In this document: piece by piece, positions 14,293 through 62,859 of the stretch
Numbering within the stretch: the first letter of the stretch is position 1
Layout: every line of letters starts with the position of its first letter
DNA from: Octopus sinensis
Taxonomy: Eukaryota
Direction: 5' to 3'
DNA: 64,000 nucleotides
Assembly (NCBI RefSeq): GCF_006345805.1
Contig: NC_043004.1
Coordinates: 35,216,001-35,280,000 of the forward strand
Position numbers and translations under genes: made by a program
The notes under the pieces: model-generated
Database searches by the model: none
Seen by the model: the letters and a program-made list of their open reading frames with translations, nothing else
What the model was told of the DNA's origin: nothing

Positions 14293-14574
14293 AGTTCCAT
14301 ATTTAAGAGAAGAGGAATTATTTACATTTGATGGATATTTGTCCTCATGGTGTAGTGGTTAAGAGCACAGGTTACTAAACCCAAGATTCTGAGTTCGATT
14401 CCAGGCAGTGACCTGAATAATAATAATAATAATAACGTTGAAAAATACCTTAGGAATGAGAACCCAAGTTCAAAACTTCCCCAAGTCACCTGATGAAGGC
14501 TGAAGGGTATATCAGCCGAAATGTGTTAACAACAAACGAGATGAGGACAAATATCAGTCAAATGTAAATAATGT
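14293..14574 (+). mobile_element. Family A unit: inverted tail fragment + tRNA-like head + (AAT)n + hammerhead
   Basis: 14293-14348 is the reverse complement of the family's 3' tail; 14347-14574 matches the Penelope terminal repeat at 58091-58436. Confidence 0.85.
14484..14527 (+). ncRNA. Minimal type-I hammerhead ribozyme (family A), small deletion in stem III
   Basis: cac-CTGATGA-a-GGCTG aagggtatat CAGCC-GAAA-t-gtgtt. Confidence 0.65.
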
Positions 14575-15703: not shown

Positions 15704-16564
15704 TACCCTTTTGATACCACTATCCTCATAACTGACTGACTGCCTGCCACCCAGTATTTACTCTGTGGTTTACCTCAGATCTGAGCCATCTGGACTTCTC
15801 CTTCTGGACACTTTTTCTCCTGTAAACACCAACCTCATTATGATCACCAATTGCATGAATTTTTAGGAGAGGAATGTAGTTTGTGCTTTGGTGCTAAATG
15901 TCCTTTCTTCTCTGATTATTTACAGAAACTTAGACTAGATTTCAATCCCCAACTCCCACTGTTTTCATTGGCTCTCCCTTATACTCAAGAAAGATATGTA
16001 TGTTGCACTTTCCACTTCTCCCTCTGTGTGGTGGGTTGCTCAAGTAAATAACTCCTGGACCAGATGCAAAATGCTTAAAAATACTAAAATGTTAGCCATC
16101 CATGTTGCTTGCATTAAAATCCACCACATGTGTTTCTTTGTGTATTTGGTCAGTATTTGAGAGGCATCTATGCGCTTAACTGTTAGGAATCCATATCAGG
16201 TTACATGTAAATGTCATATGGGATAGTAAGGGACCTAATTCACAGAAATATTCATTTAATCTCAAGAAACAAAATTTAAGCACTAGTACCTACAAATAAT
16301 CAACCATAAACACCAAACATTACATAATGACTAAATAAAACATTTATCAGTTTTCAGTTAACTCATAAAGTATAGATACGGTTGCTGTTCTACTCTAGAG
16401 TGTTTAACATTTTGGAATAATCTAAAACCACAAATATATGAACAACCATTTGTCAATCAAATTTTGAACACTACTGCAATTACTGGTACTAAGTTGATAA
16501 AATTAACTTACTACCAATGAGTTGATGGTAAATTAGTAGTTAATAGTAAATTAGTAAGTTAATA

Positions 16565-16840
16565 TCATGCCATGCTACCCTAGACTGATGACGAGCAAGA
16601 CTCAGAAACATGTCTCTGGATGCAGGCCTAGCTGTTGGGGGTACTTGTCTCCCCTTCGCAAATATAAGGACACAGGAAATGTGTCAAAGCCGACAGGAAG
16701 AGTCGATGCTTCCTAGGGCTAAATAGCGGTGGTGTGATTCCCTTTACGGGACTGTCACATTAAGTTGACAGTATACAACCACTCTATCATTCCACCACCG
16801 GTCATATCTCTCTGAGATATTTAGAAATTTAATATTTCTA
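16565..16840 (+). mobile_element. Family B hammerhead-containing retrozyme-like element with 12-bp direct repeats
   Basis: agtaagttaata at 16553-16564 and 16841-16852; HHR near the 5' end; body homologous to 62480-62690. Confidence 0.8.
16580..16619 (+). ncRNA. Minimal type-I hammerhead ribozyme, core intact
   Basis: ctaga-CTGATGA-c-GAG caaga CTC-a-GAAAC-at-GTC-tctgg; stem I ctaga/tctgg, palindromic stem III ACATGT, GUC cleavage triplet. Confidence 0.85.
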
Positions 16841-18824
16841 AGTAAGTTAATAACATTAGTAGAATGTTAAGCTAAAAGCCTTACAGCAAAGCCATATAAA
16901 AGCAGATCCATCAGTCTGGAGGTCTTGGAAAGCAAAGGAGGAATTTATGAACATCAGACAGACCCATTTCTTTAAAACAAAGCCCAAAATACAGCCTGTT
17001 TGAATTTTAACATTTCCCCTTTTCTTATCTTGGAATCCAAAACAAGTCTTGTTCCATTTTGCACTGTTTCCCTCAGAAGCTCTACTCACCTAGTTTTATT
17101 TTATCTTCTAATTTCCAAAGAGAAATACATTGACTTTTATTTCAACTTTCTCAAGATGACAGAATAAATATCTTTAATATTTCATAACTAGATTTTACTA
17201 AATGTTGGCACAAGGACAGCTATTTTGGCAAAGGGGCTGATTCAATTACATCAACCCCATTGCTCAGCTAATACTTATTTTATCTACCCCAAAACAAAGA
17301 GTCAACCTTGGCAGTATTTGATCTCAGAATATGTAGCTTGATGAAATTCTGCTAAGCATTTTGCCTGGTGTGCTAACCACTCTACCAGCTCACCACCTTT
17401 GAGAATTGTTGTCTAAGTATTTAATGGTAAGTGATTATTGAAAGCAAATTGTGCTTAGTCAAAAGCATTGTCAGTGTTCCATTGTTATGAATAATAGTTA
17501 AGGATTATTGCTGATGCAACCAGAGGACATCATCTGTTTCTCCATTTAATGAGACATTTTCCTACATAACAACCTTTCACATGTCATCAGTGACATGTCT
17601 TTTGGTCATTAAGTGTCTCAGAGCTTTCAACAGTATATACACCCTTATCCAGGTGATAAAGTTGGGGTTGATCAAATACCTGTTTGTATCCAATTATTAT
17701 TACCCCTCTACTTCCTCCCCAACTAACCCCCAGATGCTCTTTTGTTAACTTGTCCTTGTGATGCCAAACATGATGTTTGTTTCCCATATTAATTCTTGCA
17801 AAGATGGTGGCAAGCTGGCTGAATTATTGGCATGCCAGGCAAAATGCTTAGCAGCATTTTGCCCATCTTTACTTTCTGGGTTCAAATTGCACAGGGGATA
17901 AATTTTCTTTTATCCTTTCAGGGTCAACAGAATAAGTATCAGTTAAACACTTGGGGGTTCAAAGTAATTGGCTTACCCCCTCCCCACAAAACTGTCAAAA
18001 TTTGAAACCAATATTAATTTTTTGCAACATAAATAATTTTTGTGCAACTTATTCAGCAGAAGACATTTCTACCAAAACAGTTCCTGGTTGCAGTCTGAAG
18101 TTATGTCACACATTAAAAATAACTTTTCAGACATTTGACTTTGATATACCACATTAAGGGGCCAATATGCAGCCATCGTAAAAATACTACATCTGATTAT
18201 CTTTACAAAATGCAATGTTACCTCCCAGCTGTATCTGATTAATTTCATAATTAGTTTCATAATGAAAAGTGTCCATTAATTGTTTCCGATATGACAAGAA
18301 AATAATTATCTAACTCGATTCATGAAATGACTTATTGATAGCCTTACATTTCTAAATCATTATTTTTAACTTTCATATAGCTCTCCTCCCCTCAGTCCAC
18401 TTATTAACATTCATCACTGCTCCTTATTATTGTCTAACCCTTCTACTATTAACCATCCCTCTCTCTCTCTTCCTCCCTCCTTCACTCTATCACCATCCAC
18501 CACTCTCCCCTCTCTTCCACTAATCATTATCTCTACCAACATGCCCTTACACCCTTCATCCGCTCTTAGTTTTTCTTCTGTCATTGTTTGCTTTTCTAAT
18601 CATCTTGGTGCTTACATTGCCTCGTGCAACCAGTTTCACCATAGACAAGTAAGGGTTCCAAGATAGAACACAATCTCCCTAATGCTGGTGCCATATTTAG
18701 ATGTATTCACTTTGAAGTGGGTGGCAGAAAACAGGGACTACATCAGGTCAATAGGACCTTTTGGTCTTGTCATGGACACGATAAATTCTTTAGTACTTCA
18801 GCCCGAATAAAATTCATCCAGGAC

Positions 18825-25654: not shown

Positions 25655-25770
25655 ATACATATATTATATACATATATATATACACATATATACATACTAT
25701 ATATATAATACATATATATATATATACATATATATATATACATATATACATACATATATATATATATCTA
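25073..25770. repeat. ~700-bp (TA)/(TACA) compound microsatellite
   Basis: Directly visible. Confidence 0.95.
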
Positions 25771-25774
25771 GTAT

Positions 25775-26298
25775 ATTATATAAAAGGGCTTAGTAAAATA
25801 AATTACTTTGCCACATACTGAACTCATTAGAAATAGTAGCTAAAAAAACTTTTTTAAAACTATTTCTAATACTTAAAGAAAATCTCTCTAGTGTTTACTG
25901 ATTTTAACCCACGCTGGTGGAAAGGGGAGAGCAGAAATTCTTCGCTTGCATATTTTGGATTTGCTGGCACTGATAGTTCGAGCAGATCTTCAGAAGCGAT
26001 AAGAAGCCGAAAGGGTATGCTCCCACTTTCAGTGTTTTCAAATCCGAACCAAGGAGTTCTGAGCTGACGAAAGAAATGTCGATTTGACTAATCTAGAAAC
26101 GTACGTTCTCAAATACCTTTGCATTTGATTTTTAATGTCTTTACCCCCATACTTTTGTGAGTTGAATTGAGCAAACACTATATGAGAGAGATTTTCTTTA
26201 AGTATTAGAAATAGTTTTAAAAAAGTTTTTTTAGCTACTATTTCTAATGAGTTCAGTATGTGGCAAGTAATTTATTTTACTAAGCCCTTTTATATAAT
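25775..26298 (+). mobile_element. Family C element: ~115-bp inverted arms enclosing a hammerhead
   Basis: 25775-25889 is a near-perfect reverse complement of 26185-26298; HHR at 26060-26111; embedded in (TA)n. Confidence 0.85.
26060..26111 (+). ncRNA. Type-I hammerhead ribozyme
   Basis: tgag-CTGACGA-a-AGA aat GTC gattt GAC taa TCT-a-GAAAC-gtac-GTT-ctca; stem I tgag/ctca, palindromic stem III AACGTACGTT. Confidence 0.8.
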
Positions 26299-26394
26299 GT
26301 AATAATTTGAATTCGCCTTAAATGGTCCCTTGCATACTGAATACTTGTGAAATTGATTAATAATTAATTAATTTTACCCTCAATTGTTGAAATT

Positions 26395-38720: not shown

Positions 38721-40090
38721 TTTGGTATGAGCACAAACCACAGAGTGTTAGTCAGAGACTAGTAATATCCTCTGGGATCTCCCAATCCAAACAGATCAGG
38801 TGCTGGAGCATAACAGAGTGGACCCAATGGTGGTGGACAAGGTACACCATATATGCGATATAGTTGATGCTGCTTGCCTTTTTGACCCACAAATAGTCAA
38901 AAAGAAAGATGAAAAGATAGAGATACAATCCTCTTAAGTATGAAATAGCCTGGCTATCTAAGTATTAGATAGCTGAAAAGAATGAATAACATGGTACCGT
39001 AGGCTGGAGGTAGCAAGCATGCTATGCATGCAAGACTCCAGGAGCTCCAACAAAACCTTTGATGAAGAAAAAAAAAATAATAATAATAAAAATGCATGGT
39101 AGATTCTCAAAGATAGTTGCAGAAAGGAAAGCTGAAAAGGGGGGCAGAAAGTTTGTTAGTAATAGCATAAGATCAAGCATTAAGGTCTAATTGGATAAAA
39201 GCCAAGATAAACAAAAACCAAGTAGATTCCCAATGAAGATTATGCAAATCAAAAGAGGTAAGCGTTACTGATATGGTAAGTGAATGCAGCAGGCTGGCAG
39301 AAAAAGAATACAAGAAAAGACATAACAACCTAGGGAGAGCAATCCACTTGGAACTATATAGAAAGGTAGGATTTGACCATACCGATAAATGGTATAAACA
39401 TGAACCTAGTAAAGTACAAGAAAGTAAGAAATACAAGATGTTGTGTGACTTTAATATTCAGACTGACAGAGGAATAGAAGCTAGAAGGCCTCATTTAGTA
39501 GTAGTAGATAAAGAGAATAGAAAGTGCCAGATAACTGACTGTGGTGAGCTGGCAGAATCATTACCACGCCGGGCAAAATGCTTGGCGGTATTTCATCTGC
39601 TGCTACGTTCTGAGTTCAAATTCCGCCAAGGTTGACTTTGCATTTCATCCTTTTGAGGTCGATAAATTAAGTACCAGTTACGCACTGGGGTCAGTATAAT
39701 CGACTTAATCCCTTTATCTGTCCTTGTTTGTCCCCTCTATGTTTAGCCCTTTGTAGGCAATAAAGAAATAAGATAATTGACTTTACAGTCCCAAGTGATG
39801 GAAAATTAATATGAGAGGTATAGAAAAAGTAGCAAAGTGCCAGGACTTAGCCATTGAATTACAGAGAATATGGAAAGTGCGGGTAAAATGTTTCCCTGTA
39901 GTTATAGCTGCATTAGGAACTATCCCTAAAAGTTTGAACAGATGGAAATAGGCATAAAACCCAGTAGAGCTCCAGAAAACAGTGTTATTAGGGACAGCTT
40001 GGTTACTTAGGGGGTTTCTTGGCATCTAAGCTTACTAGTTGCAGCCTGATGTTAGGAATTTTTATTTTCCAACAGTCTAATCTGTTGTAT
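38721..40090 (+). mobile_element. Two tandem 5'-truncated R4/Dong-like RLE retrotransposon remnants in (AAT)n
   Basis: ILWDLPIQTDQVLEHNR..; SECSRLAEKEYKKRHN...WYKHEP...DFNIQTDRGIEARRPHLVVVDK; each starts after an AAT run; second copy split by an S2 SINE. Confidence 0.85.
39541..39771 (+). mobile_element. SINE family S2 with TSD
   Basis: TSD gataactgact / gataattgact. Confidence 0.9.
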
Positions 40091-48444: not shown

Positions 48445-50335
48445 AGGAGATTGGAATAGAATACTCTGTAGCACTCCTACAGAAAGTTTATCTCTTAGGG
48501 AGAGCAAAGGTTATCAGGAGGGTTCTAAGCACTTAAAAGACTACTGAAAATTTGTGGATACTTAAGGCTACATGTAGTAACCTGCTACCCACATAAATTC
48601 TACCAAGACCGAGCCTGAGTCAAACCAAAGACTAAGATTGGTGTTGTACTAAAAACTGGCCAGATAGAGTAATATCCGAGCAGTTTAATACATGGGTGAT
48701 AGCATCACTATGGTATGGAGCTGGAATCATAAACTGGCAAAAGAAAGAACTGATGAACATGGATTTGAAGACAAGAAAAATATTGAGTGTGTGTGGAGAC
48801 TTCCACCCCAAGAGTGACACTGATAGGCTGTACTTGTCCAGAAGAAAGGGTGGGAGAAGTTTGATAAGTTACCAGGACTGTTTTGAAGCAGAGGAAAACA
48901 GCTTAGTGTGGTATGTAAAAAATGTCTTGGAACCATTGTTAAAACATGTGAAGAAATCCATCATCATTTAACTTCCACTTTCCATGCTAGCATGGGTTGG
49001 ATGGTTTGATCAGGGTCTGGGAAGCCAGGAGGCTGCACCAGGCTCCAGTCTGATCTGGCAGTGTTTCTACAGCTGGATGCCCTTCTTAACGCCAACCACT
49101 CCGTGGGCGTAGTGGGTACTTTTTACATGCTAGGGGAAGCTGGCAGTGGCCACGATTGGCTTTTTGCATGCCACCGGCACAGAAACCAGTCAAGGCGGTG
49201 CTGGCATTGGCCACGTTCGGATGATGCTTATTTTGTGCTGCCGGCACAGGTATCATAACTACAATTTCTATTTGATATTTATTTTGATGCTGATGTACTT
49301 GACTCAATAGGTCTTCTCAAGCACAGCAGATCACCCTACAATCCAAGGTAAGCACAGCAGGTCGATCTGCAATCGAAGGTACTTTGGATGGGCTGGGGCT
49401 ATCCAGTATCACGAAAATTGATAATGGTGCAAAGAAAGAATATCTTAAAGAGGGAAAGAACACACACAAAAAAAAAGAAACATCATGGATGGAGAAAAAA
49501 TGTATGGTCAGTTTGCAAGAGATACAAATGTCAAGACAGATACAGAAGACCAGTGGCTCTGGATGAGGAGGAGTGACCTGAAGATAGAGACAGAAGCTCT
49601 CATACACGCAGCACAAGAACAAGTGTGACGGGCTAACTTTATGAAGTACAGAATAGACAATACAAATGACAACAAATGCAGATTGTGTGGTGAGAGGTGT
49701 GAAATGGTATGGTACATTGGTAGTGAATGCTCGAAATTGGCACAACGGGAATACAAAAGACACCATGACAATGTGGCAAGAATGATCCATTGGGAGCTCT
49801 GTGAAAATCATTGCTGACAAATAGCAAAGACATGGTATGAGCATACACTGCAGCAGGTGTCACTGAGAATGAAGGTTGCAAAGTCCTGTGAGATGCAATG
49901 GTTCAGTGCAGTCACCTGACCAGGCACTAGAAACCAGACATTGTTGTGGGGGGGGGGAGGAGAACTTGCCTGATAATTGGTATAGCATGTCCTGGTGACA
50001 ACAGCATCAATGTGAAAGAAGAAGAAAAGCTGAACAACTATGACGATTTGATGTGGGAAATAGAAAGGTTGAGGTCAATGAGGAGAGTAGACATGATACC
50101 AATAGTAATTGGTTCACTTGGAAGTATCAGCACTCAACTACAAACATCGCTGAAAAAGATCGGTGCAAATGTGAAGGTAGAACACCTACAAAAATCAGCA
50201 TTGCTTGGAACTGCAAGAAATCTTGGCAGGGTTCTTGAAGTATGACCAGTAAACAAGTGTCACCTTAGTCCACTGGCTGTGGACAGCAGACACTTTCCAT
50301 CATACCAAGCAAAATAAGCTGTGAGTTTTCATATA
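48445..50335 (+). mobile_element. Decayed R4/Dong-like RLE retrotransposons (short 3' fragment plus longer copy split by S3)
   Basis: YGAGIINW...DLKTRKIL...HPKSDTDRLYLSRRKGGRSL; CRLCGE..WYIGSEC..EYKRHHD; IACPGD...PIVIGSLG...QKSALLGTAR. Confidence 0.9.
48960..49400 (-). mobile_element. Family S3 repeat nested in the Dong-like element
   Basis: Reverse-complement match to 32298-32718. Confidence 0.85.
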
Positions 50336-50695: not shown

Positions 50696-51550
50696 TTGAA
50701 AACGAATGAAACTGAAAAATAGGTGGGTAAAGAAAAGAATGCATGGTCAATTTCATAGGGATGTTGAAAAAAGATGGCTGTGGATGACTAAAAGTGATTT
50801 AAAACCAGAAATGGAGACTCTAATGTGTCTGCCCAAGAGCAAGCAAGCACTAAAAACAAACTACATAAAATACAGAATAGACAACACAGCAGAACGTGAT
50901 AAGAGCAGAATCTGTGGACAAAACGGTGAAACCGTATGGCATATTACCAGTCAATGTACACCACTAGCCCAGAAGGAATATAAGAGAGGCCATGACAATA
51001 TAGCAAGGCTTGTCCATTGGATACTTTGCAACAAGTATGGACTTGACAGAGCAAAACATTGGTACAACCACAAACCTAAAGGCATTGTCAAAAATAGAAA
51101 TGCAAAGATCCTATGGGATTTTATGATTCAGTGCGACCATGAGATAGAGAATAGGAAGCCAGACATAGTCTTAATTGAGGAAGAAAACAAACTATGCTGG
51201 ATCACAGATATAGCATGCCCAGCTGACAAGGTATGCGATAAGGAAGAAAGAAAAGTCGAGAGATATGACAGGTTAGCTTGGGAAGTTAAGCATTTGTGGT
51301 TGATGAAAAAGGTAGCAGTAGTACCAATAATTGTTGGAGCCCTGGAAACAGTGAACAAAAATCTCGAGAGGTATGTGGAACAAATAGGGGCTGCAATAAG
51401 GGTGGAGCACTTGCAGAGAACAGCACTGCTTGGAACCGCCCGAATACTCTGGAAGGTCCTTGAAAAATAAGATGTGTTAACTTAGTTCACTGGTAGTCAA
51501 CAGCTGACACCATAGTACATCTCCAGCGTTAGAAGCTGTGCAAAGGCAAT
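50696..51550 (+). mobile_element. 5'-truncated R4/Dong-like element; open 254-aa C-terminal ORF (50706-51470) with zinc knuckle and RLE endonuclease
   Basis: SRICGQNGETVWHITSQC (CCHC-like), RGHD, ILWDF, RKPDIV...DIACP, PIIVGAL, ALLGTARIL; flanked by (GAT)n. Confidence 0.9.
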
Positions 51551-57660: not shown

Positions 57661-58168
57661 GAGAATGAAAGAGCCTTTATGTGGTTGTGCAACATGCCAG
57701 AAATGGTAGTCAAATTTTCTGAAACTATACCCATCCATAGATTTTGAAAATAAAACAGCTCATTGGCTAATCTTGCTGGATGAATTTTCTGAAAATAAGA
57801 TGGAATGCTCACAACTAGAATAATTGGCCTGACCTGGTGCTAATATTCCAGTAGATTATTGGCACATAAGAGTTGTGAGATCTTCTATAGCTAATTCTGC
57901 TGACAAGTTCCAGATTTGTTGCCTCTCCCAAAATCTTGAATTCAGATCTCGCAGGAGTATATTTTACTTTCCATCCCCAGTTGACAAAGGAATGAATAAT
58001 AAGGGTTTCAGATTTTGGCACAAGGCCAGCAATTTCAAGGAGGATTTAAGTTGATTATATCAATCCCAGCATTCAACTGGTACTTATTCAGTTCTATGTT
58101 TAAGAGATAAAAAATTATGTACATTTATTTACAATTGACGGATATTTGTCCTCATCTTGTTTGTTGTT

Positions 58169-58216
58169 AACACAACATTTCGGCTGATATACTCTCCAGC
58201 CTTCATCAGGTGTCTT
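58169..58216 (-). ncRNA. Minimal type-I hammerhead in the Penelope terminal repeat (family A)
   Basis: Minus strand gacac-CTGATGA-a-GGCTG gagagtatat CAGCC-GAAAT-GTT-gtgtt. Confidence 0.8.
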
Positions 58217-58361
58217 GGTGAAATTTTGAACCTGGGTTCTCATTCCTAAGGTATTTTTCGATGTTGTTGTTGTTGTTATATTATTATTATTATTATCATT
58301 ATTATTATTATTACTATCATTATTATTATTATTATTATTATTATTGTTGTTGTTGTTGTTC

Positions 58362-58435
58362 AGATCACTGCCTGGAATCAAACTCAGAATCTTGGGGTTA
58401 GTAGCCTATGCTCTTAACCACTATACCAGATGCCC
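58362..58435 (-). promoter_or_regulatory. tRNA-like segment with Pol III A/B boxes inside the Penelope terminal repeat
   Basis: Family consensus tggcgtagtgg (A box), anticodon-like loop ctactaa, gagttcgattcc (B box); acceptor stem imperfect, so not called as a tRNA gene. Confidence 0.7.
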
Positions 58436-58464
58436 GTGGGCAATTATAGAGTGAATTTTAGGGC

Positions 58465-59690
58465 TTATAATTCCAATATTCTCCTATCCTTCCTTAATAC
58501 CGATTCCATATGCTGTTCATATCTACACTTGGTCTGCTTAGGAGGTTGTTGTGTCCTAGCATATGGGCTGCTTCTTTTAATTTTCATATTTTCTTGTGGT
58601 GTTCTCTGTCTATTATTTTAACTTCATCCCACAGGGGGAAGTGGTCTTCATTTTTCCATACATGATCAGCTATACCTGATTTATCAATATCTCCCCGTGT
58701 CACAGCTTTGTGATGTTCCTCTACCCTTATTTTGAGGGGGCGGCATGTTTTGCCTTTGTATAACCTACTACAGCTGCATGGGATAGAGTACACACAGTTC
58801 TTAGTTATATTCTCTTCTACTGGTGGTTTTATTCGAAGGAGATATTTGCAAAGTGTTGAATTACTTTTGAATACTGTCCTGATGTCATATGGGGCACATA
58901 TCTTTTGTATCTTTTCGGAGAGGCCTTTCACAGAGGGTAGACAGACTGTGGACAGTTTATCGATTTCATCCTCTCTTTTCTTCATAATTGGAGTGGAGAG
59001 TATGCTTTTGGGGTAGTTGTTGCTTAATAGATTGTTACTGAACTTGATCATTTCTTCGTGGTGGGTATCACGATTGTTACTTATATTCATTGCTCGATGT
59101 TTTAGGTGCTAAGCAATCCCTCACTTTACACTGTATGGATGGTGTGCATTGAGGTTGAGGTATCATCCAGTGAAGGTCGGCTTGCGGTATACGGATGTCC
59201 TGAATCCATACCTGGTGCGTGTTATTAATACATCCAGGAATGCTAGCTGTCTTTTTCCTTTTCTGTTGTGAACTATATGGATGGCTTTATTGAGTTCACA
59301 TGATCTAACAGCACTTGGACATCTTCCTGGTGGGGCCAGAGTATGAAGGTGTCATCAGCATATTGTAGCCATAGGGTTGGTTTTAGTGGTGTTGATCCTA
59401 AAGCCAAATTCTCAAAGCATTCCATGTGTATATTGGCTATTACTGGTGATAATGGTGAACCCATAGCTAAACCCTCTTGTTGTCAATATATATCAGTGTC
59501 CATACTGAAGTAGGTAGTTTCTACACAGAAGGTCAACATTTCCATCAAGTTTCTTATTAGTGTACTAGTGAATTCTTTTAGATAGGTATCTGTCACTAGT
59601 TTTTCTTGAATCACCGATAGTGCTTCACCAGTTGGGACTTTGGTGAACAGACTTATCACATCTAGACTCACCATCACGTTGGACTCAGTG
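58465..59690 (-). pseudogene. Penelope/Poseidon-type reverse transcriptase + GIY-YIG endonuclease, with stops and frameshifts
   Basis: VSLDVISLFTKVP, GLAMGSPLSPVIAN, YADDTF, FLDV, VYRKPT, then CVYSIPCSCSRLYKGKT..RVEEH..SGIADH. Confidence 0.92.
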
Positions 59691-59764
59691 GGAGTATCTT
59701 TGGTGTAGTGGTTAAGAGCACAGGCTACTAACCCCAAGATTCCGAGTTCAATTCCAGGCAGTAA

Positions 59765-60256: not shown

Positions 60257-61628
60257 AACGAATGCTGTCTTTTTTTCACCAGATAAGTACTTCCAATTAG
60301 ATTGTCTTTGCTTATGACATTAAATATATTAACACTATCTTAACAAGTTCAGAAGTTCTTCATTATGTTGTATCTTTGACCAAGATATCCACCTCGACTT
60401 GCTCCAGTTTGCCTGACTGAACCAAACAATGGATGCCGTTCTTATTTCATGGTTGAACAGTTAACAGCAGAAAAGCATCCAGCTGTAAAAACAATTATTC
60501 TAGCAAACAAACCAAACCACACATTTAAATATGGAAAAAATGGATATAAAATTGTATAAATTTAATTTAAAATATTAGCCACGTGAACTCTAAAATAAGT
60601 ACTGATCTCTGGTTGCCATGAAAAATATTTTCATGGTGTTTAGCTAATGAGAAGAATTCAAGTGAAGAGATTGTGAAATAAGAATAATGTATTCAAAGAT
60701 ATTTACATTCATTCGACATTTATTTTCTCTATCTGCCGGCTTCCTCATGCTGGTTTCACAATCATGTACAAAACTCAATATCTGTAACAAACTGAACCAA
60801 GTTCTTAATATAATCCAGTTTTGGTGAAGAGTCTTTGCTACTATACAACAACCTAAAAGCCATTAACAATCATCATCATCATCAGTATAATCCACATATC
60901 TCTCAATTACATCCTGATGCAGCTCAAGCCAAATGCCTGATCTATTTAATTTTACACAGTGGTTGCCTCTCCTATCAGAACTTTATCTTAATGACTGCAA
61001 GGGATCTATTTCCCTCAGAAACGTTAGCATACCTTTCCCTCAGAAACGTTAGCATGCCTTTCATCCTTTCGGGGTTGATAAATTAAGTACCAGTTACGCA
61101 CTGGGGTCGATGTAATTGGCTTAATCCCTTTGTCTGTCCTTGTTTGTCCCCTCTGTGTTTAGCCTCTTGTGGGTAGTAAAGAAATAGGTTTTACTTGATG
61201 GTTTGAAAGTATCACCCAACAAAAATTAACCAAACCTTTAACCATTACACACACAAACTAGTTGGAGTGATATTTATGTTAAATTTCAACAGTTTCACAT
61301 CAATTAATGCAGGAATATTGTAAGCAGGGTAGGAATTCCAGAGGGATCATGTTGAGGGGGAAAATGATTGTGAATAGCAATACTGAATGGGTGGCAAGAG
61401 GATGGGAGTTAAGTGCAAGCGATGAGGTTGGATGAGGATAATAAGCCAGTGTCAGGAGTAGAGGCCGTTGTGGTAGTTGTAGAAGAGGTCGAATAATGAC
61501 AAGACAAGAGGTCTGTTGGAGTAAAGATTGTTTGCCAACATAATATGGCAGTCCTGGTTTAGGACGAATGTTGCTGTAATTTAGCCCCAGGAGACATCAT
61601 CTCTAGCTGGCTATATGACATGATCTGT

Positions 61629-62176
61629 CATCATCATCATTGTCATTTAATGTCCGCTTTCCATGCTGGCATGGGTTGGACAGTTTGACTGAGGACTGGT
61701 GAGCAAGAAGACTGCACCAAGCTCAATCTGATCTGGCAAAGTTTCTACAGCTGGATGCCCTTCCTAATGCCAACCTCTCCGAGAGTGTAGTGGGTGCTTT
61801 TATGTGCCACCGGCACAAGGACCAGTCAGGCAGTTCTGGCAACGACCACGCTCAAAAGGTGTTTTTTATATGCCATCTGCACGGGAGCCAGTCTGACGGC
61901 ACTGGCAATGACCATGCTTGAATGTTGTTTTACATGTGCCAGTAAGGAGATGCTGGCAACAATCACACTCGAATGGTGCTTTTTATGTGCCACCAGCACA
62001 GGAGCCAATCTGTGGCCCTGGCAAAAATCATGCTCGGATGTGCTTTTAACATTCTACTGGTATGAGTACCAATCAGGAAGTACTGCCATCGGCCACATCA
62101 GCGATTTTGATTTGATTTGATTTCAATTGCCTCAATAGGTCTTCGCAAGCAAAGTTTATTGTCCAATGAGTGAGGG
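61629..62176 (-). mobile_element. Family S3 repeat with expanded internal ~50-bp units
   Basis: Several tandem ggtgcttttatgtgccac-type units; GAT tail on the minus strand. Confidence 0.85.
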
Positions 62177-62424
62177 GTGTCCTTATATTTTCAAACAAGG
62201 GATGTCTTCTGGGGCTAAATTACAGCAACATTCATCTTAAACCAGGACTGCCATGATATGTTGGCAAACAACCTTTACTCCAAAGTACTGTTGCTGAATA
62301 TCTCTCATTATGAGATTTACAAATAGTAATTTTCTAATTTATAGATCAGTGACTAGTTGTCACTTTGAAAACTATATATTTCAAACGGGTATTTGGCAGC
62401 GCCACCTGTAGCCAAACAATTATT

Positions 62425-62467
62425 CCGAGCTGATGAAGAGAAATAACCCAGAAATCGTGATACACAG
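62425..62467 (+). ncRNA. Degenerate type-I hammerhead (family B)
   Basis: ccgag-CTGATGA-a-gag aaataa ccc-a-GAAA-tcgtga-ta-cacag; core present, stems mismatched. Confidence 0.55.
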
Positions 62468-62859
62468 ATGTTGTTTTGAGCTGAGTGGGGGTGCTAGATT
62501 CCCTTGTTTGAAAATATAAGGACACAGATCATGACATATAGCCAGCTGGAGATGATGTCTCCTGGGGCTAAATTACAGCAACATTCGTCCTAAACCAGGA
62601 CTGCCATGATATATTGGCAAACAATCTTTACTCCACAGTACTGTTGCTGAATATCTCTCATTATGAGATTTACAAATAGTAATTTTCTAAGAGATCTGTT
62701 GATTGGAAATTTGTGTGTGTTGGTGAGTGACTCCTAACTCATCAACCAGATAGCTTTTTTGGCGGGGATTCAGTCAGGGATGCTTTAGTGTGTAGCAATA
62801 GTACTGTCCTAATTATGTAGTAACAACCAACTAGAGTCATTTAAATCTATTTATACGAT

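Follow-up and report, generated by a model that had tools for sequence, protein, structure and literature searches.

Two diverged elements at this locus carry a hammerhead ribozyme followed by a region in which short motifs recur. We asked whether this region is a folded RNA kept by selection, as a preliminary description had claimed, and what such a module would do for the element. The window referred to below is the whole stretch that was analysed, 64,000 nucleotides of Octopus sinensis DNA. It is AT-rich, repeat-dense eukaryotic DNA with microsatellites, broken retroelement frames and 100 N.

Copies, ribozymes and insertion ends

Copies A (16565-16840) and B (62338-62690) of the family, referred to here as family B, were 62.4% identical over 271 columns (E 7e-11; A 16585-16842 aligned to B 62430-62691). 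All of the ordered motifs that had been described as common to 16620-16840 and 62480-62690 were found, in the same order and at the same places (Table 1), and ATATCTC..GAGAT was also present in both copies. The AAATATAAGGACACAG motif occurred only twice within the window when up to one mismatch was permitted. We ran a covariance model of A and B over the window with filters off and obtained 48 matches at E<=5; A, B and two further copies, C and D, were the only ones above 14 bits. Thus the two elements of the preliminary description are four copies, but they provide two independent sequences, since B, C and D, with an identity of about 96%, stem from a single insertion. Copy C differed from B at 6 of 137 positions and copy D at 5 of 134.

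Table 1. Positions of the family B copies and of their parts in the window.
Feature	Position	Strand	Remarks
Copy A, left target-site duplication	16553..16564	+	12 nt; identical to 16841-16852
Copy A, type I hammerhead	16565..16632	+	fully paired, intact; predicted cut after C16614
Copy A, 5' module part	16634..16720	+	P1 G-rich hairpin, invariant AAATATAAGGACACAG block, P2, P3
Copy A, three-way junction	16727..16800	+	P4, P5 16739-51, P6 16753-70, 22-nt AC-rich loop 16771-92
Copy A, terminal hairpins P7 and P8	16804..16841	+	ending TTCT/AA, the insertion end
Copy A, right target-site duplication	16841..16852	+	
Composite B, left target-site duplication	61506..61518	+	13 nt; 12/13 match
Inverted truncated copy D, 3' piece	61519..61628	-	equals 62524-62633; abuts target duplication
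Later insertion, unrelated repeat family	61629..62176		548 bp; splits copy D
Copy D, 5' piece	62177..62202	-	equals 62500-62525; 2-nt overlap with copy C start
Copy C, 5'-truncated direct copy	62201..62337	+	equals 62554-62690
5' part of the 353-nt B unit	62338..62407	+	three consecutive predicted hairpins
Copy B, type I hammerhead	62408..62483	+	core 62430-36, GAA 62451-53; predicted cut after A62462
Copy B, 5' module part	62484..62569	+	GGGGGT, AAATATAAGGACACAG, P2, P3 (TAGCC/GGCTA, GGAGA/TCTCC)
Copy B, three-way junction	62576..62649	+	P4, P5 62587-601, P6 62602-19, 22-nt AC-rich loop 62620-41
Copy B, 3' end	62653..62690	+	ATCTC/GAGAT hairpin and TTCT/AA insertion end
Composite B, right target-site duplication	62689..62701	+	AA common with element end
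Candidate 3-bp pseudoknot	62563-65 with 62633-35 (A: 16714-16 with 16784-86)	+	one double change
GGGGGT motif	A 16637-42; B 62487-92		
AAATATAAGGACACAG motif	A 16660-75; B 62512-27		
CCT(A/G)GGGCTAAAT motif	A 16712-24; B 62561-73		
GGACTG motif	A 16749; B 62598		
TTCTAA terminal motif	A 16841; B 62690		

Copy A is a truncated monomer. At the second locus one target duplication encloses the inverted copy D, the partial copy C and B, a complete unit of 353 nt; the B insertion comprises 1.39 direct units with one hammerhead. A repeat as long as the 12-nt duplication of A was found in 26 of 2000 random box pairs, microsatellites included, and one matching as well as the 13-nt duplication of B in 48 of 5000. 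Each duplication alone has therefore a chance of about 1%, and both are placed exactly at the element ends. The target of copy A is itself locally repeated: in the left flank of A (16504-16564) there is a short imperfect tandem repeat, and part of the target duplication recurs there in inverted orientation.

Copy D runs from 62202 to 61519, corresponds to 62500-62633 and is interrupted by the 548-bp insertion (61629-62176), which belongs to an abundant repeat family with 13 other matches in the window and has an apparent 2-nt duplication. It ends at ACTC in the 22-nt AC-rich loop, 171 nt past the cut, and shares 2 nt with the target at this end. Copy C resembles a pseudo-LTR, being a partial tandem unit. 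Nothing corresponding to the 5' part of the B unit (62338-62407) was found in A or in the rest of the window. The insertions of A and B, 38% diverged, end at the same base, TTCT/AA (the slash marks the end), 225-226 nt past the predicted cut, and 1-2 A at this end are common with the target. The unit continues beyond TTCTAA at the junction of C and B; on a tandem or circular RNA, a start at TTCT/AA would therefore be internal. The one-sided extension, or tail, at the B locus measures 55 nt and is a single case.

The hammerhead of copy A consists of stem I (16580-84/16615-19), the core CTGATGA (16585-91), an extra C, stem II (GAG/CTC), an extra A, GAA and the palindromic stem III ACATGT. The hammerhead of copy B is decayed, with 2 of 5 pairs of stem I mismatched next to the core and 1 of 3 in stem II; its core is intact. 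In both hammerheads stem II is flanked on each side by an extra base, the G10.1-C11.1 pair is present and stem III is palindromic. In the available text of Cervera 2014 (PMC4209133) hammerheads of Penelope-like elements (PLEs) are characterised by a palindromic stem III, the G10.1-C11.1 pair and one base inserted between 9 and 10.1, and stem II with such a base at either side is seen in PLE families among the available rows of Craig File S2, e.g. PLE-X1_cBra and rows of the Hydra clade. Copy A also contains a 42-codon frame from an ATG in the hammerhead core (16588-16716, + strand), which recalls the start of the anole PLE and is not kept in B.

Fold of the downstream module

We aligned a 90-nt block of A and B without gaps, with GGGCTAAAT as the only anchor; 43 of 90 positions were identical. 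Folded separately, the block formed 20 pairs in A and 22 in B, of which 16 were common. The common fold is a three-way junction, with an 8-bp closing helix P4, the adjacent hairpins P5 (5-nt loop) and P6 (8-nt loop), and a 22-nt loop; helix and loop lengths are identical in both copies. The 22-nt loop is 64-68% A+C and contains an invariant ACTC. The junction helices of copy B had probabilities of 0.96-0.99.

When the 22 pairs of B were tested on A, 10 were unchanged, 8 were doubly changed and still Watson-Crick, and 4 were broken, 3 of these in a weak hairpin found in B only. The greatest change was concentrated in P4 (CGGTGGTG/CACCACCG, 16727-34/16793-800 in A; CAGCAACA/TGTTGCTG, 62576-83/62642-49 in B), where 6 of 8 pairs were changed on both sides and none was broken. 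This helix had been overlooked in the preliminary description. The two helices cited there for compensatory changes are real, although each has one compensatory pair only. The ATATCTC/GAGAT hairpin pairs in different registers in A and B, and therefore the seemingly compensatory change in this hairpin is an alignment artefact. Sliding the register of the block by 1-3 nt left 7-10 paired cells instead of 18. Each of the 8 double changes consists of two transitions, and no G-U pair was found among the 17 junction pairs of either copy. RNAalifold predicted 36 pairs, 11 of them with double changes. We discarded one of these, in P7, as a register artefact, and two in P3b are only probable, since they lie beside a gap that MAFFT placed differently between alignments; thus 8 of 11 were kept as robust.

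Outside the junction, P1 was weak or marginal (p 0.4-0.5 in A), and P1, P2 and P3a had no covariation. P2 (GACACA/TGTGTC in A) is strong in A, has one mismatch in B and is intact in D; P3 of copy A is formed by AGCC/GGCT and GGAAG/CTTCC. The invariant GGGGGT could alternatively pair with ACTCY. P7 had p 0.96 in A versus 0.11-0.60 in B, and the terminal TTAGAAAT/ATTTCTAA hairpin, P8, p 0.92 in A and p 0.0 in B. We also scanned all helices possible in both copies for a pseudoknot, an idea raised in the preliminary description. Among the 49 listed there was one lead, of 3 bp and with one double change, and the idea goes no further than this.

The strength of the shared fold was assessed against several nulls. 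With the same columns kept different and G-U permitted, 4273 and 11129 of 200000 trials did as well; with Watson-Crick pairs only, 965 and 1033 of 100000; with columns redrawn, 0 to 142 of 100000. Neutrally mutated and refolded copies reached 16 common pairs in 4, 0, 3 and 0 of 3000 trials. Overall, the neutral-mutation nulls gave p of about 0.01 to <0.001, or 0.02-0.06 when G-U counts. For the entire downstream region, 24 pairs were common, of 65 and 64, and nulls reached this in 1, 0, 11 and 0 of 500. Fold z-scores were -4.94 for A and -2.57 for B. A separate shuffling test, in which 0 of 500 shuffles did as well, is given no weight as a probability, since the structure tested had itself come from these two sequences. 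Changes that arose after insertion among B, C and D served as an internal control: there were 10 distinct ones, 5 in stems, and all 5 were one-sided, none compensated. Selection on a structured RNA, as had been claimed, is supported by the 8 Watson-Crick double changes, by the refolding nulls and by the one-sided nature of the changes in this control. The case for selection on the fold is good. It comes from two independent sequences, which places it short of a formal per-pair test of covariation.

Class of the element

Family B is best classed as a type I hammerhead mini-retroelement, a non-LTR retrozyme and a non-autonomous Penelope-like element. The B unit has 353 nt with a GC content of 0.385 (0.449 in A), within the range of retrozymes (150-450 bp, <50%). 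The target duplications of 12 and 13 nt exceed the 4 bp seen as the lower bound for retrozymes, and a type I hammerhead core with stems I-III is present, intact in A and with an intact core and mismatched stems in B. The hammerheads are of the PLE type, and the arrangement of inverted D, partial C and full B in one duplication is the partial-tandem and inverted-copy layout of PLEs. No ORF was found in or adjoining A or B, hence no RT plus GIY-YIG ORF of the kind that marks an autonomous PLE. There was also no conserved frame: each of the 6 frames is interrupted by stops in one copy or both, and the differences are distributed 19/13/15 by codon position. Of the 80 listed frames, 13 were searched against Pfam, and 3 matches, weak and unrelated, were the only result.

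According to the available text on metazoan non-LTR retrozymes (PMC7229834; Li 2026, 10.64898/2026.07.22.740005), family B resembles these elements in its type I hammerhead, whose stem III is short and palindromic, and further in unit size (353 nt here), GC content (38-45% here), lack of an ORF, duplications of more than 4 bp and a more-than-unit-length insertion. Unlike the arrays of complete units reported there, family B occurs as a monomer or 1.39-mer and has an inverted copy and a defined covarying module. Li 2026, as far as its available text goes, classes a retrozyme as active when it has at least two units, each with a complete hammerhead, and counts monomers as family members. Neither A, a truncated monomer, nor B, with 1.39 units and one hammerhead, is an active array in this sense within the window. 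The same text derives animal retrozymes from PLE pseudo-LTRs and leaves the mechanism still to be worked out. Retrozyme sequences are species-specific and 'highly self-paired' in the accessible portion of PMC7229834, and in that of the 2020 review PMC7761336 animal retrozymes have no conserved motif indicating a helper.

Available descriptions of the PLE pseudo-LTR region (PAc/Poseidon, Anolis; PMC11167929) share with family B a hammerhead followed by a region of internal cDNA starts and an AC-rich loop. The excerpt of Craig 2021 (PMC8557442) on PLE layout adds the partial tandem, the inverted truncated copy and the one-sided tail. In these sources PLE tails are 30-40 nt at one end only, compared with 55 nt, in one case, for family B; the first PAc start site lies about 85-92 nt past the cut, compared with 171 and 225-226 nt; and PAc has a single stem-loop where family B has a multi-helix junction. 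The likeness is one of layout rather than of demonstrated sequence homology, and family B has no ORF. The Schistosoma Sm-alpha/Sj-alpha hammerhead SINEs and newt satellite 2, as available in PMC6765202, are short type I hammerhead repeats that borrow an RT, like family B; they differ in that family B lacks a tRNA-derived part and has the inverted layout of PLEs.

Other classes were rejected. ARAGORN found 0 tRNA genes and a T-arm pairing common to A and B was looked for in the 22-nt loop and not found, which speaks against a tRNA-derived SINE. Helitron-type elements have TC...CTRR ends, a 3' hairpin and no target duplication. Copy A starts with TC and ends with CTAA, but both insertions have duplications of 12-13 nt.

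Several other elements were observed in the window. A third hammerhead mini-element lies at 25769-26304 (core 26064-26098, inverted copy 25769-25912) and is embedded in TA repeats. Its stem II is flanked by an extra A on both sides, as in family B, and it has a TTAGAAAT/ATTTCTAA hairpin (26205-26247) resembling the terminal hairpin of copy A. Within the window this combination was found only in these two families, which may share a common helper. A broken Penelope-like element lies on the minus strand at about 58100-59700, with RT and GIY-YIG-type frames and its own hammerhead at 58209, of a different family from that of B. Hammerheads related to it lie at 14490 and 37598. Relatives of the endonuclease-side frame of this element bear PF00078 and PF26215 (4 matches among 361 candidates). 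Fragments of non-LTR retrotransposons on the + strand (50700-51470, 49931-50245 and 39237-39635) have a zinc-knuckle and restriction-like endonuclease look; we take them to be R4/Dong-like, and Pfam gave no match for them.

Searches beyond the window's own copies placed the module in no known family. Rfam 15 gave 0 matches over the window at gathering thresholds, and the module had none at E<=10, where 3, 3 and 0 weak unrelated matches were returned; the sensitivity of Rfam is limited here, as the hammerheads of A and B were themselves missed. Likenesses to pistol, twister, SECIS, the SRP Alu domain and the IGR IRES of dicistroviruses, and to tRNA, which the 74-nt domain resembles in size, were judged by eye and rejected for a wrong order or missing pairings. 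In GTDB genomes the strict module pattern had 0 loci and the relaxed pattern 6, none backed by a covariance model (4 matches, best E 0.19, none of them the module). Blastn found no match of A to phages or of the B unit to plasmids. Family B motifs were not found in the consensus file of Craig by a search that can miss matches across line breaks. The element itself is of a known kind. Its covarying module, and the connection of this module with the insertion ends, seem not to have been described before in the literature searched, outside of which the supplements of PMC7229834 and Li 2026 could hold related sequences.

Possible function of the module

On balance, we think that the module is probably a cis-acting platform, bound by a borrowed RT and fixing the internal start of reverse transcription. 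Recognition by an RT had been one of the earlier suggestions; it is the best reading and, although we infer it, the insertion ends support it independently of the fold. Family B would be a non-coding, non-LTR retrozyme of about 350 nt, moved in trans by a PLE RT-endonuclease, and the platform would comprise about 225 nt behind the ribozyme: P3, the three-way junction with its AC-rich loop, and the terminal hairpins. Briefly, a tandem or circular transcript would be made and, judging from related families, may be processed by the hammerhead. The PLE protein would then bind the folded module. Both target strands would be nicked 12-13 nt apart, as seen from the duplications. One nick would prime at UUCU/AA behind the module and copying would proceed backwards, for 1.39 units in B; here the ends are observed and the mechanism is proposed. 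The other nick could prime in the single-stranded ACUC loop, which, from the one case at hand, would give the inverted copy and the one-sided 55-nt tail. If the template is tandem or circular, as we infer, the start is internal and needs a signal, which the folded module would supply.

In the available text of Frangieh 2024 (PMC11167929) the anole PLE protein extends both strands, with two internal starts in an AC-rich stem-loop downstream of the hammerhead. There the stretch between the two starts is the tail, and hammerhead cleavage is not required, which fits copy A, whose cDNA crossed an uncut hammerhead. The two ends at the B locus, TTCT/AA and the ACTC loop, would parallel the two internal start sites of this anole Penelope element. 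Against the platform, the tail and the spacing from cut to start differ from the anole element, and the 16-nt invariant block, which lacks covariation, could be a promoter at the DNA level. Nor did a partner element turn up: the PLE within the window carries another kind of hammerhead and is not similar to family B, and the diagnostic motifs were not found in the consensus file of Craig. Chance microhomology at ends is a feature of L1 twin priming, and the D end, a single case, may likewise reflect it.

A bolder form of the platform reading, which we put forward tentatively and regard as doubtful, is that the module would be a discrete and portable RT-recognition and start-setting RNA domain of a PLE-retrozyme pair, possibly pseudoknotted, comparable to the template-positioning elements of telomerase RNA. 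If true, any RNA carrying it would be copied by internal initiation by the telomerase-related RTs of PLEs, and it would be the first defined cis signal connecting an animal retrozyme to its helper.

It is rather unlikely, in our opinion, that the fold is real and serves other needs of the RNA life cycle, such as stability of circular RNA, binding of host proteins, ligation or restraint of the hammerhead, with the invariant unpaired blocks perhaps being internal promoters that act as DNA. Retrozyme circles are predicted to be highly self-paired, with a hammerhead thought to be blocked in vivo (available text of PMC7229834), promoters are reported within PLE pseudo-LTRs (PMC6765202, likewise in its available part), and AAATATAAGG is TATA-like and without covariation. 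This would leave unexplained why two diverged insertions end at one base behind the module and why the inverted copy ends in the loop; such roles may also be compatible with a platform.

Pairing could have been selected in DNA, whether cDNA or a cruciform, either because the GIY-YIG endonuclease recognises it or because second-strand synthesis makes use of it. The 17 junction pairs without G-U, helices that form on both strands and with DNA parameters, and the requirement of the Penelope endonuclease for tail DNA in cleavage (cited in the available text of PMC11167929) are consistent with this. Against it, the module is in phase with the ribozyme, and all 8 double changes are double transitions, the path via G-U intermediates that is typical of RNA. 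We consider selection in DNA very unlikely.

Also very unlikely, and slightly less credible than selection in DNA, is that the module acts as another catalytic RNA, a nuclease or ligase of a new class, for which the 3-bp pseudoknot joining the internal loop of P3 to the ACUC loop might be the basis. The invariant unpaired motifs (GGGCUAAAU, GGACUG and ACUC), the exact loop lengths, the double change in the candidate pseudoknot and the decay of the B hammerhead would suit a catalyst. But the hammerhead of A is intact, and the defects in B resemble decay after insertion. The HDV-like layout is a double pseudoknot (P1, P1.1, P2, P3, P4 and J4/2). A relaxed descriptor of it, run without a positive control, gave 0 matches in 4 strand scans, and the likeness to HDV J4/2 and pistol linkers clashes with the topology. 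With no Rfam match for the module either, the second catalytic domain of the preliminary description is unsupported.

Two further explanations are highly improbable. A remnant PLE pseudo-LTR or 5' leader driving cap-independent translation after hammerhead cleavage recalls the anole PLE, whose hammerhead overlaps the ORF start (PMC11167929, available text), and ribozymes tied to translation initiation in reviews (PMC7761336, available part), yet a non-coding element with no conserved frame and no Rfam IRES match has nothing to translate. Equally improbable is covariation as a mutational by-product or a chance effect of n=2. Template switching can perfect inverted repeats, and the conservative nulls of 0.01-0.06 come from two sequences, but three nested helices with fixed loop lengths, P4 arms 58 nt apart, the 0 of 5 compensated neutral changes at the same locus and the z-scores of A and B all stand against it.

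In summary, the module bears on the question of how non-coding animal retrozymes are taken up by an RT. The covarying domain of about 75 nt, the two invariant blocks and the two mapped insertion ends are specific targets for mutation. If the module is only a stabilising fold, family B would be another retrozyme family with a well-supported secondary structure. If the domain sets the internal start, it would explain the precise ends, the pseudo-LTRs and the tails, and it may offer a template handle for PLE-based gene writing.
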